Virus genome (UHGV): UHGV-0170246
Origin: a virus
Direction: 5' to 3' (one strand)
Length of the DNA: 45,982 bases
Position 1 is the first letter of the stretch; every line of letters begins with the position of its first letter. Position numbers and translations under genes: made by a program. Positions 4,911-19,804 of this stretch are shown piece by piece. A model generated the notes under the pieces. It ran no database searches, was not told the DNA's origin, and was given only the letters and a program-made list of their open reading frames with translations.

Positions 4911-5607
4911 AGTCTGAAATTTAAATCTTGCTTGGTAGGCTGGATTTAAAAAGACACCTCTTGATTGGGGCGGCTTTCTTGCGTCTAAAGATAATCAAAT
5001 CTTTTTGCGCCTGCAACCCCTTTTTTACTGGTGCCTGTTTCAGACTCACGCTCGCGTCGTTGTCTTTGCCACTTCGTTGGGTTCGGTGTTTTTGGGCGGA
5101 GTGGCGCGCGGGTATGCGTACAAGGGGAAAGTGTGCTGACGCAAGCTAGGAACAGCGATCTAAACTAAGTCGAGTCTGAGAAAGGCAGGAGTGCGACAAC
5201 TCGCCTGTGCTCAATGAGCAGAAGAAGGTATATCAGACGACCAATGGCATGATTGTGGGCCACAGGGCGCACACGGCGGCGAAGCATTGGAAACGATGTG
5301 GAGCTATCTGGTGGCATGAGTTCCGGTACTCGATCTCGAGCTTTTTTTGATGCTTTTGAGAAGGGGCCGGAACTCCGGTAAAGGGCACCCTGTATGGGGG
5401 GAGGGGGGGTTGTGTCTGAAGGGTGGCTATCGGTTATGGTGGAATTATGATGCGTAGAAAAGCGAGTTTGCTGCAAGCTATTGGGTCCATTATTTCTTTG
5501 TTTCCGGCAGTTGATCATTTTCGTCATATGGCGACACGTTCGAGTATGGGCTTGGCGCGTGACGCTGACGCTATTCGAAAGGATTTTCAGAAAGTCTCTG
5601 GTGTTGA

Positions 5608-5641
5608 TAAGAGAGAAAAGAGTAAGGGGCCGTAGCCCCTT
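5608..5641 (-). terminator. Rho-independent terminator for the antirepressor gene
   Basis: Hairpin AGGGGC-cgta-GCCCCT just downstream of the stop at 5646; minus strand has a U-rich run after the hairpin. Confidence 0.5.
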
Positions 5642-5645
5642 GTAG

Positions 5646-6791
5646 TTATGGTCTGCTTTTCTGTGCCAGCTTATCAGCACATGTTTTTATCAGATCCTGT
5701 AGTGTCCTGGCTGGCAGGTTTGCATCCAGTACGCTGAGTATGCTGTTGTGTTCTGCTTGGTCGACTACTTTGCCTGTCGGTGGTAGTAGCTTGAGCTGAG
5801 GATTCAGGTTTTCGTCAAAGCTGATAAGTGCTCTGGCGTTTCTGAGCAGATCAAGAAGTAAGGCTGATATCACATTTTCCTGAGTCATTGCTGGCAGACT
5901 TAGCGCCGCTTTGGTTTTCCCTGTTGCCTTGTCAAACTCCTTGATTAGTTCCTTCCTGTAGTTCGGTTCCGTTAATAGCCGATTATGCTCTGTTGCCGCG
6001 CGGATAATCGTTTTTTCCTGGTATAGTCGTTTAGCCAGATCACGCTCGTACTGTGTTTTTAACACGCTGCTGATAGCGTTAAAGGCTTCAATGTAGGCCA
6101 GCTTGATATCTTTCACGCTTGGACCGTCGATGCTCTCCATGAGCAAGGTAAATCCGTCTTTTGTCATGCGATAGATTGTTATTTCGCGGTCGCTTCCTTC
6201 CAGCGGTCGTTGCTCTTTAAAGAAGTGACGCGCCGCAGCTGTGCGAGGAATGCGTAACGCATCGATGGCCATAACGATGGAATTGTTTGTGGTGCTGAAT
6301 GCCTGGGCAACATCGGCTGAGGTTGTGAGTGGCTCGTTGTTGCACACCTTAATGTAATACATTGGTTTAGCGTTGAGCGTATCGACAACCTCACGAGCAT
6401 TGTTTGGTGAGACGGTTACGGTCGCGGCCGTTTGCGCGTTCTGGTTGAAGTAGCAGTCTTCCAGCCGTTCGAATACATCCCACGCCTGATCGGTTTCGAG
6501 CATTTTAGCGTGACGTGCAGCCCCGCGTTCTGTCCAGAGGATGAGGGAGCGGACTTTAGGTGAAACTGGATTTTGAGAGTAGTTTAAAGCTACCCGCAAT
6601 TCTTTAAGGTCATTACCAACAACTTTGAAAAAGTGTTTCCCTTCAACGAAACGTGCTTTGTTCTCATGATGATTCTGGCGAATACGCACCGGCTCAGTGC
6701 CGTAAAGCTGTGCTAGTAACTCGGTAGTAATGACAGGGATTTGGTTATGCAGGATAGGCTGTAGGGTGTTAACGGTCGGAAGCGTTTTCAT
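5646..6791 (-). CDS. Antirepressor-like protein (ORF6N-type N-terminus, Rha-like central region)
   Basis: 381 aa; N-terminal pattern PVITTELLAQLYGTEPVRIRQNHHENKARFVEGKHFFK and internal TTSADVAQAF segment typical of phage Ant/Rha-type regulators (recalled domain patterns). Confidence 0.55.
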   Translation of the reverse strand: MKTLPTVNTLQPILHNQIPVITTELLAQLYGTEPVRIRQNHHENKARFVEGKHFFKVVGNDLKELRVALNYSQNPVSPKVRSLILWTERGAARHAKMLETDQAWDVFERLEDCYFNQNAQTAATVTVSPNNAREVVDTLNAKPMYYIKVCNNEPLTTSADVAQAFSTTNNSIVMAIDALRIPRTAAARHFFKEQRPLEGSDREITIYRMTKDGFTLLMESIDGPSVKDIKLAYIEAFNAISSVLKTQYERDLAKRLYQEKTIIRAATEHNRLLTEPNYRKELIKEFDKATGKTKAALSLPAMTQENVISALLLDLLRNARALISFDENLNPQLKLLPPTGKVVDQAEHNSILSVLDANLPARTLQDLIKTCADKLAQKSRP

Positions 6792-6979: not shown

Positions 6980-7394
6980 GGTGATAGTTCCCTTAAAGGT
7001 TAAGGATACTCACCACCGTCTGGTTCCAATCATTGGGTGGTGAGACGTACAGGGTTGGAACTACCGGTCACCATGGAATCCGGCGAGTCTTACGACTCCC
7101 CCGCACGCCCCACCATAATTTGGGTGTAGCAGTGCTTTACGCATAAAAAAACCGCTAACGCGGTATGCGCCATGATGATTATCGGGGTTCCAATCCCGAC
7201 CGTAGATTTTGCTACGGCTCGGAAAGTGTCCACCAATGGCGCATTTATGTCAATACAGAGGGATTTTAACAGAGACAACCACATAGCGTGGGTTTATTGG
7301 TAGGCAGAAACAAAAAAACCGCCCTATTGAGGACGGTTCTTTCGTGCTGATCGGATTCGCGGTCCTTTCAGCATAACGTCGTTGTACTAATACA

Positions 7395-7414
7395 ACCACG
7401 CAAGCACAAACAGC
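7395..7414. repeat. Direct repeat copy 1 (ACCACGCAAGCACAAACAGC)
   Basis: 19/20 identical to 7645-7664, about 250 bp downstream, in an ORF-poor region. Confidence 0.6.
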
Positions 7415-7644
7415 AACTACATTCTTACCCAACTGAGGTGAATAGTCCACTATTCATATAAAAAAATTTAGCTCATTAGCTCATGCAAAATGAAGGTTTT
7501 TAACTTATTTACGTGTAATCTCATGTAATAAAAGCGTTTTTTATTCCTTCATTATGAAGGGTATGACGTGTAATATGGCTTGGGGCCTTTCCGCCGATTC
7601 GCACCCGGGCACTGACTTTCAGGAAAGGATTATCCACTTGCCGT

Positions 7645-7664
7645 ACCACGCAGGCACAAACAGC
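7645..7664. repeat. Direct repeat copy 2 (ACCACGCAGGCACAAACAGC)
   Basis: See copy 1. Confidence 0.6.
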
Positions 7665-7728
7665 GTGCTTGCTCTCGCGTCATTTTCGTCGGTGGGGATG
7701 CCGTGAAACGGCCTGTAAGGGCCACACA

Positions 7729-7851
7729 ATGAAAAAATACTACATGTGTATTTTTATCGTTGTTACTGGAGCTTTGTTTACGCCACATGGGGAGGGTTGG
7801 AAGATTACTGATAACGCTCTGAATGTGACGATAAACATTAGCAGCAAGTAG
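7729..7851 (+). CDS. Possible small hydrophobic peptide (40 aa)
   Basis: In-frame ATG of ORF 7669-7851; one predicted transmembrane stretch (YYMCIFIVVTGALF); followed at once by a strong terminator; no recognisable family. Confidence 0.2.
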   Translation: MKKYYMCIFIVVTGALFTPHGEGWKITDNALNVTINISSK

Positions 7852-7856
7852 CGATT

Positions 7857-7880
7857 AGGCCCCTTCGGGGGCCTTTTTTA
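7857..7880 (+). terminator. Rho-independent terminator
   Basis: 7-bp stem AGGCCCC/GGGGCCT with TTCG tetraloop followed by TTTTTT. Confidence 0.75.
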
Positions 7881-8028
7881 CTGCAACCTGCATTTGATAG
7901 CTGTTTACCATTGCAGTAGCTTATATACCGTAAGAGCCACAAGATGTGGTTACGATTTCAATACGGGGTTGATATGAAAAAGCGGTATGACGAATTTGAT
8001 GGTTTCTAAGAGACGTTGACCTCTAATG

Positions 8029-8055
8029 AGGCGGGTTGGTTGCCCGCCTTTTTTA
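8029..8055 (+). terminator. Rho-independent terminator
   Basis: Stem GGCGGG/CCCGCC with a 7-nt loop followed by TTTTTT; second plus-strand terminator ~170 bp after the first. Confidence 0.7.
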
Positions 8056-8064
8056 TGGCTACAT

Positions 8065-8247
8065 TTAAACGCTGGAACGCATTAAACCTTTCAGAACTGC
8101 TTCACGTACCCATTCTGGCCTGGTTGATAGCAAGGCAAATAAACGCCCAGCTTTGAGTCGCTTGAGGTCTATTAGACGAGTTTTTAGTAACCGTGTATAT
8201 TGTTGTTCGGACATAACAAATTCCCCTTGTTGTGTCGCGACGGCCAA
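8065..8247 (-). CDS. Hypothetical small protein, distal gene of the partition operon
   Basis: 60-aa ORF directly downstream of the parG-like gene on the same strand. Confidence 0.3.
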   Translation of the reverse strand: MAVATQQGEFVMSEQQYTRLLKTRLIDLKRLKAGRLFALLSTRPEWVREAVLKGLMRSSV

Positions 8248-8276: not shown

Positions 8277-8525
8277 TTACTTCTGGTTGTATTGAGCCTT
8301 GAGTAACTCAAAAGATTTTGTCAGCACTTCTTTCAATGACATATCCATTGAACTGGCGAACGTTTTGTACTCGCGTTTAAATTCAGGGTCGACGTTAAAC
8401 GCCATTTGTGCCCCACCTGATTTGGTTCTGGTTGGCGTTTCAGTCGGGTCGAAAACCTGCGGTTGTTCGATCGATGGCGGTACGCCTTTGCTGTTCTTCT
8501 TTGGTGGTTTTGATGGTGCGGCCAT
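8277..8525 (-). CDS. ParG-like ribbon-helix-helix centromere-binding protein
   Basis: 82 aa, immediately downstream of parA; unstructured basic N-terminal tail and C-terminal RHH-like segment (FNVDPEFKREYKTFASSMDMSLKEVL). Confidence 0.6.
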   Translation of the reverse strand: MAAPSKPPKKNSKGVPPSIEQPQVFDPTETPTRTKSGGAQMAFNVDPEFKREYKTFASSMDMSLKEVLTKSFELLKAQYNQK

Positions 8526-8537
8526 GTGTATCCCCTC

Positions 8538-8570
8538 TTATATAAATCTATAAAACTATAATTATATATT
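8538..8570. repeat. AT-rich motif locus (TATAAATCTATAAAACTATAATTATATATT) downstream of parG
   Basis: Member of the dispersed TATAATTATATA(AAT) motif family. Confidence 0.55.
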
Positions 8571-9237
8571 ACGCGGCAGTAGTCAGAGCCTCAAGCTGGT
8601 TGATAATCCCCTGAATAACGTCGTCTGCCTTTTTGCGTGGCGCAACGTATGAGCATTCAATGAGGCTTAAGCCCTTATCCTGAGCTTTGCTCAGAGCTGG
8701 CTTGTGGGGAATGTACTTATCGACAACAAAGTATGGCGTATTAGCCAGGTACTCTTGGGCTTCAATATAGTCAGCTTCATTTTCAGCCGCGCCGGAAAAC
8801 ACCATGCAAATTTTCTTGATTGGCACACCCTTTTTAACGATGCCGTGAGCAGTGTTAACGGTGGTTTCCAGGTCATCGGTAGAGAATCGGGTTGGCAAAA
8901 TAACCATATCCAGAAATTCAGATAGCTTCGGTACTGATTCAGATGCGTAGGCACCGCCATCAACGATAACCAGGTCGTATACTTCTGATTCGATGATTTT
9001 CTGGACTTGTGATGGTGTGCCGCACGGCTGCGCCGCGATTGCTGGTTCGATATTGTTGGCCATTCTGCGTTGTACCCAACGCGTTACCGTTCCGTTAAGC
9101 ACATCCATATCGATCAGGCATACATTCCAGCCAGCCTTTGCATAAGCAACTGCTAAAGCACGGGCAATTGTTGATTTGGTTACGCCGCCTTTTCCGTTGA
9201 AAATACCTACAGAGATAGTCATTTGTCGAGACTCCAT
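8569..9237 (-). CDS. parA: ParA-family partition ATPase (small type Ib ParA/ParF-like)
   Basis: 222 aa; deviant Walker A GKGGVTKST near the N-terminus; followed by a small RHH protein gene. Confidence 0.8.
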   Translation of the reverse strand: MESRQMTISVGIFNGKGGVTKSTIARALAVAYAKAGWNVCLIDMDVLNGTVTRWVQRRMANNIEPAIAAQPCGTPSQVQKIIESEVYDLVIVDGGAYASESVPKLSEFLDMVILPTRFSTDDLETTVNTAHGIVKKGVPIKKICMVFSGAAENEADYIEAQEYLANTPYFVVDKYIPHKPALSKAQDKGLSLIECSYVAPRKKADDVIQGIINQLEALTTAA

Positions 9238-19728: not shown

Positions 19729-19804
19729 GGCCCCTTAGCTCAGTGGTTAGAGCAGGCGACTCATAATCGCACGGTCATCGGTTCAAATCCGGTAGGGGCC
19801 ACCA
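19729..19804 (+). tRNA. tRNA with anticodon CAU (Met, or Ile2 if lysidine-modified)
   Basis: Hand-folded cloverleaf: 7-bp acceptor stem GGCCCCT/AGGGGCC, D arm, anticodon loop CTCATAA, T arm GGTTCAAATCC, encoded CCA; strongly resembles E. coli ileX as I recall it. Confidence 0.85.

Follow-up and report, generated by a model that had tools for sequence, protein, structure and literature searches.

Positions 7312-7880 of UHGV virus genome UHGV-0170246, a stretch of 45,982 bp that was analysed whole and is called the window below, hold two predicted divergent transcription units: on the minus strand a small RNA (sRNA) gene resembling timR, and on the plus strand an mRNA gene resembling timP. Together they very probably form a complete, divergent timPR (ryfA/ryfB-type) type I toxin-antitoxin locus on a phage-plasmid. 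A preliminary description of this DNA had pointed out twin 20-bp direct repeats, a 40-aa open reading frame (ORF) with one hydrophobic stretch and two strong plus-strand terminators, had likened the layout to a type I toxin/antisense locus or a regulatory RNA locus adjoining the partition operon, and had recognised no family. Each of these elements was recovered. The repeats, ACCACGCAAGCACAAACAGC at 7395-7414 and ACCACGCAGGCACAAACAGC at 7645-7664, are identical at 19/20 positions, lie 250 bp apart and differ by a single A/G; translation and a Kyte-Doolittle profile confirmed the ORF at 7729-7851; and the terminators, at 7857-7874 and 8028-8050 with a T-run after each, are the top two sites of a scan that listed 10 terminator-like sites in the region, against 1.9 expected. 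The likeness to a type I locus also gained support, from a full-length ryfA match, a TimP-like peptide and the antisense/target signature of the repeats, and a family can now be named: timPR, formerly ryfA/ryfB (PMC7667032, PMC11228461, PMC13000454). The features of the locus, with SL for stem-loop and SD for Shine-Dalgarno sequence, are the following.

7312-7414, minus strand: TimR-like antitoxin sRNA, ~103 nt, recognised by its 5' seed, internal hairpin and terminator; both ends are predicted
7312-7336, minus strand: TimR terminator (stem-loop 7319-7336, U-run 7312-7318), read from the sequence and present as the 3' hairpin of the fold
7395-7414, minus strand: repeat copy 1, the TimR seed; minus-strand reading GCUGUUUGUGCUUGCGUGGU
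7421-7449, minus strand: putative TimR promoter; -35 TGGACT at 7444-7449 (plus-strand positions), 17-nt spacer, -10 AAGAAT at 7421-7426, 6 nt to G7414
7548-7576, plus strand: putative timP promoter; -35 TTCATT at 7548-7553, -10 TAATAT at 7571-7576
7583-7880, plus strand: timP (ryfA) toxin mRNA, ~298 nt, from the match to Rfam RF00126 and the fold
7586-7628, plus strand: SL1, carrying site 1
7610-7616 with 7688-7694, plus strand: 7-bp pseudoknot of site 1 CACUGAC (SL1) with site 3 GUCGGUG (SL3)
7639-7644 with 7708-7713, plus strand: site 2 UGCCGU with site 4 ACGGCC, the latter being the 5' flank of SL4
7645-7665, plus strand: repeat copy 2, the TimR binding site; runs from the 5' flank of SL2 through the 5' arm to the loop
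7651-7671, plus strand: SL2, the TimR target region
7674-7707, plus strand: SL3, carrying site 3
7710-7723, plus strand: SL4, GGCCU-GUAA-GGGCC, with the SD AAGGG (7717-7721) in its loop and 3' arm
7729-7851, plus strand: TimP-like 40-aa toxin ORF, ATG at 7729 and stop at 7851; translation MKKYYMCIFIVVTGALFTPHGEGWKITDNALNVTINISSK
7857-7880, plus strand: timP intrinsic terminator, from the terminator scan; 3' end of the Rfam ryfA model

An Rfam scan of the whole window identified ryfA (RF00126) at 7581-7879 on the plus strand. The match covers model positions 1-296 of 296 and scores 134.6 bits, against a gathering threshold of 80 (E=2.2e-34). RyfA is the mRNA of the type I toxin TimP, whose repressor is the divergently encoded sRNA TimR (PMC7667032). 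Folding of 7583-7880 gave a z of -3.85, and chromosomal homologues annotated as timP share ~70% identity with the window over 7583-7781. When alignment columns were compared with the published numbering (PMC13000454), G7583 corresponded to the +1 of Salmonella timP; the -10 of the putative timP promoter ends 7 nt 5' of this base.

The 5' untranslated region (5'UTR) of timP is known to form four stem-loops, with the SD sequestered in SL4 and the TimR site at SL2 (PMC11228461), and long-range pairing of site 2 with site 4 opens SL4 (PMC13000454). We aligned the 5'UTRs of eight sequences: the window, two copies of a second plasmid allele (allele B, below), K-12, a Shigella-type allele, E. ruysiae, E. 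whittamii and S. diarizonae. The columns of this alignment agree exactly with the published Salmonella numbering at C57, G125 and C138 (PMC13000454). SL1-SL4 and the pseudoknot were paired in 95.5% of alignment cells, versus 35-48% when the partners were slid, and eight pairs had changed on both sides. The minimum free energy fold of the window recovers SL2-SL4. Sites 1 and 3 of the pseudoknot were positioned by maximal complementarity and the published length of 7 bp. All seven of its pairs form in 8/8 sequences (100% of cells), two of them with compensatory changes, from G-C to A-U and from U-A to C-G or U.G. The site 2-4 helix, whose columns correspond to the published C57-G125 pair (PMC13000454), has 5/6 pairs in the window, all Watson-Crick, and across the alignment is paired in 93.8% of cells, with one compensatory pair. 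The GNRA type of the SL4 loop is kept in pO145_122715_2 (L038), where GCGA substitutes for GUAA and the SD becomes GAGGG.

The 40-aa ORF stands in the same position relative to SL4 as in chromosomal timP, with the SD AAGGG at 7717-7721 lying 5' of its start. The peptide begins with MKK followed by YYMCIFIVVTGALF. It matched the NCBIfam model NF040796 (toxic_TimP) over aa 1-40 of 40 with E=1.2e-4 and 22.2 bits, the cut-off being 45 and the score of K-12 TimP 86.8; BLASTP against K-12 TimP gave 33% identity (E=1e-6). By hydropathy it has the organisation of K-12 TimP, an N-terminal signal-like hydrophobic segment (aa 1-20) and a polar tail. Its single hydrophobic stretch reaches a maximum of 2.73 at aa 7-17 (11-residue window); the mean over aa 4-17 is 2.09 (K-12, 2.34) and from aa 18 to the end -0.53 (K-12, -0.68). 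The reading frame is intact in 15/15 plasmid and phage copies, among which variant codons comprise three synonymous and one nonsynonymous, plus one in-frame 3-nt deletion. This deletion of one codon characterises the L038 variant, MRKYVCILIV.... The exact peptide occurs once in a collection of 5.8 billion proteins, and a search of that collection returned one identical cluster and no bridging homologues; no TimP family was found in Pfam. On the related plasmids and the phage inspected the ORF is unannotated, probably because of its sub-threshold score against the curated model. By its predicted features the 40-aa ORF is probably a divergent TimP.

The TimR-like RNA would be transcribed divergently from a start ~170 bp upstream of the timP mRNA. 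It aligns with the chromosomal TimR of E. coli, Shigella, E. ruysiae, E. whittamii and S. diarizonae, all of which share the core GCUGRAARGRCCGCGAAYC (the internal hairpin) followed by a terminator. Its fold has an energy of -42 kcal/mol (z=-5.07). Among relatives of the window the RNA is nearly invariant; the adjoining intergenic DNA has diverged, and within it TGGACT and the -10 position stand out as conserved islands (allele B reads TGGACT-16-TAAAAT). The terminator hairpin is better on the minus strand, since positions 7322/7333 pair as G.U there versus C.A on the plus strand. The terminator scan of the region did not list 7312-7336, and we think that it missed this site because the U-run finds a pairing partner in an A-tract 5' of the stem. 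Rfam also returned an RNAI-like match at 7311-7408 on the minus strand (25.9 bits versus a threshold of 47, E=0.027); it was rejected as a resemblance of shape because the RNA aligns with TimR.

The two repeats connect these RNAs. When both strands of the window were scanned with up to three mismatches tolerated, only the two sites were found, where 0.01 were expected; two sites occurred in 0/100 shuffles. Likewise, a 20-mer pair with at most one mismatch arose in 0/200 shuffles of 7250-8100. Because a direct repeat in DNA that is transcribed from opposite strands yields complementary RNAs, the twin repeats mark an antisense RNA that is transcribed divergently from its target, and the A/G difference between the copies becomes a G.U pair in the RNA duplex. 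Copy 2 corresponds to nt 65-84 of the timP mRNA (numbered from window position 7581). The published design is the same, the 18-nt 5' end of a TimR encoded by a divergent gene with its own terminator being directed against the timP 5'UTR (PMC7667032).

Duplex prediction between the repeats, a check suggested in the preliminary description, gave a contiguous helix of 20-21 bp with mRNA nt 65-85; with the 5' 26 nt of TimR, the predicted seed-target duplex has a free energy of -39.4 kcal/mol. Full-length RNAduplex runs were discarded as meaningless, shuffled sequences reaching -75 kcal/mol versus -65 for the cognate pair, and seed-restricted duplexes and counts of the longest helix were used instead. 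Each of the loci examined carries a seed and target of its own that match over 17-21 bp. The start of the helix falls at mRNA nt 62-65 in 8/8 loci compared, whether chromosomal or plasmid-borne, which fits the published site at SL2 (PMC11228461).

Three plasmid alleles were distinguished by the end of the repeat, and in each the seed, which is the TimR copy, and the target copy have changed together. Allele A (the window, L037 and L038) ends in both copies in ...CAAACAGC (...ACAGC), allele B (L003, L039 and others) in ...CAAGCAGC (...GCAGC) and allele C (L036) in ...CAAGCGGC (...GCGGC). For each of six timP mRNAs compared, the cognate allele had the best predicted energy. The TimR seed of the window pairs with K-12 timP over 10 bp only, and the two TimR copies of K-12 pair with the window timP over only 7-8 bp. 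Since the seed/target pair is mismatched to that of the E. coli chromosome, host TimR should not neutralise the toxin of the element, and the two timPR systems should not cross-neutralise. The predicted duplexes suggest that alleles A, B and C would still cross-react with one another. The promoter-bearing intergenic DNA exists in three unrelated versions, both flanking RNAs being nearly invariant. A tandem 8-mer, TAGCTCAT TAGCTCAT, lies in this interval at 7469-7485, only in the allele-A type version, and could be the binding site of a regulator. On the K-12-type chromosome, the interval between sseA and timP (L001, 198-622) holds a pair of genes resembling TimR as well as a duplicated part of the timP 5' end. 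Pairing with the timP target there extends over 20 bp for the distal TimR copy and over 11 bp only for the proximal one, whose seed instead matches the Shigella-type timP allele.

By analogy with Salmonella, the SD would be locked in SL4, and translation would need both the SL1-SL3 pseudoknot and site 2-4 pairing. Binding of TimR at SL2 would block the active, pseudoknot-containing fold, so that TimP would be made only when TimR runs short. In the published system an alternative pairing, of site 1 with site 2, locks the inactive state. Excess TimP would then damage the inner membrane.

Taken together, these comparisons support the place of the locus in the ryfA RNA family, the cognate antisense RNA and the conservation of the switch elements. 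The locus is a new member of a known family, divergent and mobile, and not a new kind of system. Several points weigh on the other side. The predicted peptide falls under the curated NCBIfam cut-off (22.2 versus 45 bits) and is just 33% identical to K-12 TimP; each of the promoters is a weak match that a consensus scan did not call; and the covariation comes from few independent events, in three plasmid alleles and five chromosomal lineages. Two further points speak against a killing or addiction role in particular: deletion of timR in Salmonella raises TimP yet permits growth (PMC7667032), and a Salmonella relative of the element with a 95.5% identical ParA has no timPR.

Three other readings of the locus were considered. 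Direct repeats near a partition operon recall protein-binding sites (iterons, a parS centromere or operators) and need not be RNA pairing partners. Such sites are extremely improbable here, where only two copies exist in 46 kb and each is embedded in a structured, conserved RNA with homology to TimR or timP. The sole difference between the copies is moreover a transition, which in the RNA duplex becomes a G.U pair, and chromosomal timPR loci share the arrangement without par genes and with wholly different repeat sequences. Iterons and parS were rejected on these grounds. The plus-strand transcript might alternatively be mainly a regulatory non-coding or dual-function sRNA, its peptide incidental or untranslated and its antisense RNA a sponge or regulator, not an antitoxin. 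RyfA is indeed described as an sRNA with phenotypes in uropathogenic and avian pathogenic E. coli and in Shigella (PMC8205139, PMC13188913, PMC10664665), and the 3' two-thirds of the ORF are invariant among the plasmid alleles even at synonymous sites, which could reflect constraint on the RNA. We nevertheless regard this reading as improbable. All 15 copies preserve the ORF together with its SD and frame, with the one length change in frame and synonymous outnumbering nonsynonymous codons by three to one; the SD-sequestering SL4, the pseudoknot and the site 2-4 helix are all maintained by compensatory change, and compensated elements of translation control make sense only if translation matters. 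For the homologue, translation and toxicity of TimP have been demonstrated (PMC7667032).

A sub-threshold peptide, weak promoters and a related Salmonella element without the locus would also be expected if a chromosomal timPR had hitch-hiked onto the element and were now a decaying remnant without function. Decay is very improbable for a locus in which seed and target covary in three alleles, structural pairs are compensated, the ORF is intact in all copies and the RNAs are conserved far better than the DNA between them. The module is also found in as many PLSDB plasmids as the par operon (58 and 58).

Chromosomal timP/TimR of Salmonella and E. coli (ryfA with ryfB/STnc2070, RF00126) and the window locus belong to one RNA family, with a full-length covariance-model match. 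Both have the four-stem-loop 5'UTR with its SL1-SL3 pseudoknot, site 2-4 pairing and SD-sequestering SL4; an ORF in the same position, whose product is similar in size and carries a hydrophobic signal-like segment at its N-terminus and ..SSK at its C-terminus; and a divergent TimR with homologous body and terminator, whose 5' seed is directed against SL2 at mRNA nt 62-85. They differ in location, the window locus lying between the par and immunity genes of a phage-plasmid and the chromosomal one between sseA and sseB. The seed/target sequence of the window is orthogonal to the chromosomal ones, its seed copy lies ~188 nt upstream of the timP start, versus ~96-101 nt in chromosomal loci with a proximal TimR, and its SL4 is shorter (5 bp, with a GUAA loop).

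As a functional analogue we propose hok/sok of plasmid R1, the classic type I toxin-antitoxin system for post-segregational killing on plasmids, which likewise combines a small membrane-toxic peptide with an antisense RNA, extrachromosomally and near stability functions. There is no homology of sequence or structure between the two. Hok is controlled by a cis-antisense RNA that overlaps it, and it has a mok leader ORF and an mRNA processed at the 3' end, whereas timP needs no processing and relies on a trans-encoded divergent sRNA and a structural switch (PMC11228461). Hok/sok-type families had no match in Rfam scans of the window, where the antisense RNA is trans-encoded and non-overlapping. 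The systems tisB/istR-1, zorO/orzO and shoB/ohsC have a divergent upstream antitoxin with ~18-21 nt of complementarity to the toxin 5'UTR, likewise seen in the DNA as a short direct repeat. Their toxins and RNAs are unrelated, their mRNAs need 5' processing or standby sites, and none of them matched the window in Rfam scans. Phage-plasmid P1, which also carries a C4-type antisense immunity region, has phd/doc as its plasmid-prophage addiction module; this type II system relies on a protein antitoxin and has no sequence relationship to the window timPR.

The locus is flanked by immunity genes on the left and by partition genes on the right.

5646-6791, minus strand: ORF6N+Rha antirepressor, downstream of a 63-aa ORF (phrog_7886) and C4/isrK
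7120-7033, minus strand: C4 antisense RNA (Rfam, 84.3 bits)
7218-7145, minus strand: isrK (Rfam, 70.2 bits)
7231-7179, minus strand: c4-a1b1 target (Rfam, sub-threshold)
8277-9237, minus strand: ParA and a small partner gene

C4, isrK, the 63-aa ORF and the antirepressor make up a P1-type immI immunity region that abuts the TimR terminator. To the right of timPR, a 49-aa ORF, an 82-aa ORF and ParA lie on the minus strand and converge on timP. The 49-aa ORF (MSEQQYTRLLKTRLIDLKRLKAGRLFALLSTRPEWVREAVLKGLMRSSV, 8065-8214) is conserved, has a good SD and stands at the end of the parA operon; neither Pfam nor PHROG gave a family for it. Many relatives (e.g. L002, 2456-3028) have an extra XRE-type helix-turn-helix gene of ~0.5-0.6 kb that ends at the TimR terminator and makes the flanks of timPR an indel hotspot; it is absent from the window, where the corresponding slot, from the isrK region to the TimR terminator, is ~7219-7311. 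A tRNA gene lies farther away at 19729-19801 on the plus strand (Rfam tRNA, 67 bits), and a related Yersinia phage annotates tRNA-Met.

The family to which the window belongs comprises non-mobilizable Escherichia plasmids of 46-52 kb together with isolated Yersinia phages such as vB_YpM_39, and the presence of these phages identifies its members as phage-plasmids. The timPR module is present in 71/5,426 complete E. coli genomes (~1.3%), and the reference strain E. coli ATCC 25922 carries it at 99.1% identity on plasmid NZ_CP009073.1. The Salmonella relative with the 95.5% identical ParA, the Weltevreden plasmid NZ_LN890526.1 (L040), has the same C4/isrK region without timPR, which makes the module accessory cargo in a variable slot. 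In that plasmid the slot (5456-6030) holds an 88-aa ORF with its own terminator; the ORF has no entry in the gene table of PLSDB, which is incomplete, and no Pfam or PHROG family was found for it. IMG/VR scans with the uSL1 motif and the TimR core matched only this phage-plasmid family. Scanning of species-representative genomes with a degenerate pattern identified no closer chromosomal source for the plasmid allele; it returned only chromosomal loci of Escherichia, Shigella and Salmonella and four contigs of GC-rich metagenome-assembled genomes, the latter being chance matches that do not align beyond the pattern.

The second of the two terminators lies outside timPR. The preliminary description had paired it with the first as tandem terminators, an arrangement on one transcript that did not hold, since the second sits in a 175-bp insertion with the following features.

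7876-8050, plus strand: 175-bp insertion, its register ambiguous within the flanking repeat GCCTTTTTTA (7871-7880 and 8046-8055)
7894-7922, plus strand: promoter-like TTGATA (7894-7899), 17-nt spacer, TAGCTT (7917-7922)
7937-7949, plus strand: hairpin
7963-7968, plus strand: strong SD, ACGGGG
7974-8009, plus strand: 11-codon ORF MKKRYDEFDGF (MKKMYDEFDGF in the P2-like copies described below)
8028-8055, plus strand: second terminator, ending the mini-ORF unit and conserved with it in the P2-like copies

The insertion was absent from 9/9 aligned relatives, in which the timP terminator leads straight into the sequence that begins at 8051 in the window. The two terminators thus end two independent transcripts, the second closing a separate inserted unit that is unrelated to the toxin transcript; a fail-safe function of the pair for the toxin transcript was rejected on the same ground. 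The insert occurs in 6 PLSDB plasmids at 99-100% identity. Homologues ~79% identical lie in ~290 E. coli chromosomes, inside P2-like prophages, where they are placed between the portal gene and a DUF4760 gene, immediately upstream of the latter. The DUF4760 start codon follows within ~20 nt of the unit, which for this reason looks like a leader/attenuator or small RNA; in the window the unit is orphaned from this arrangement. The P2-like unit sits in a variable region between the portal gene and ParM/rep A (L011, 2990-3180; L012, L026-L034), and in L030 different DNA replaces the sequence downstream of the terminator loop. Rfam identified no family on the P2-like copies of the unit and none covering the insert of the window. 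PADLOC assigned no defence family to the DUF4760 protein and gave only a weak Csx27-like match for a neighbouring protein. The MKK(R/M)YDEFDGF unit may be an undescribed leader-peptide or small-RNA cassette controlling cargo such as DUF4760 in the variable region of P2-like prophages.

Native levels of TimP do not stop growth, and phenotypes have been ascribed to "sRNA RyfA". Among the papers searched there was no report of timPR on plasmids or phages, and every carrier record that we inspected omits the toxin gene from its annotation. Type I systems are usually regarded as poorly mobile (PMC5367252), and timPR on a phage-plasmid is a modest counter-example. A conserved, co-evolving, host-orthogonal copy beside partition genes suggests a role in maintenance or competition. 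Given a seed/target pair mismatched to that of the host and a position next to parA/parB, stabilisation of the plasmid-prophage by post-segregational growth inhibition is the role we would tentatively put foremost, at something short of even chances; exclusion of other phages and a membrane function in the phage life cycle are the alternatives. More speculatively, this would be the first mobile timPR, captured by a phage-plasmid, re-keyed in seed and target against host TimR and used for addiction or phage exclusion, a proposal that we hold to be doubtful in full. If true, timPR, long a family without an explanation, would gain a concrete selective function, and there would be a natural system in which to test it.

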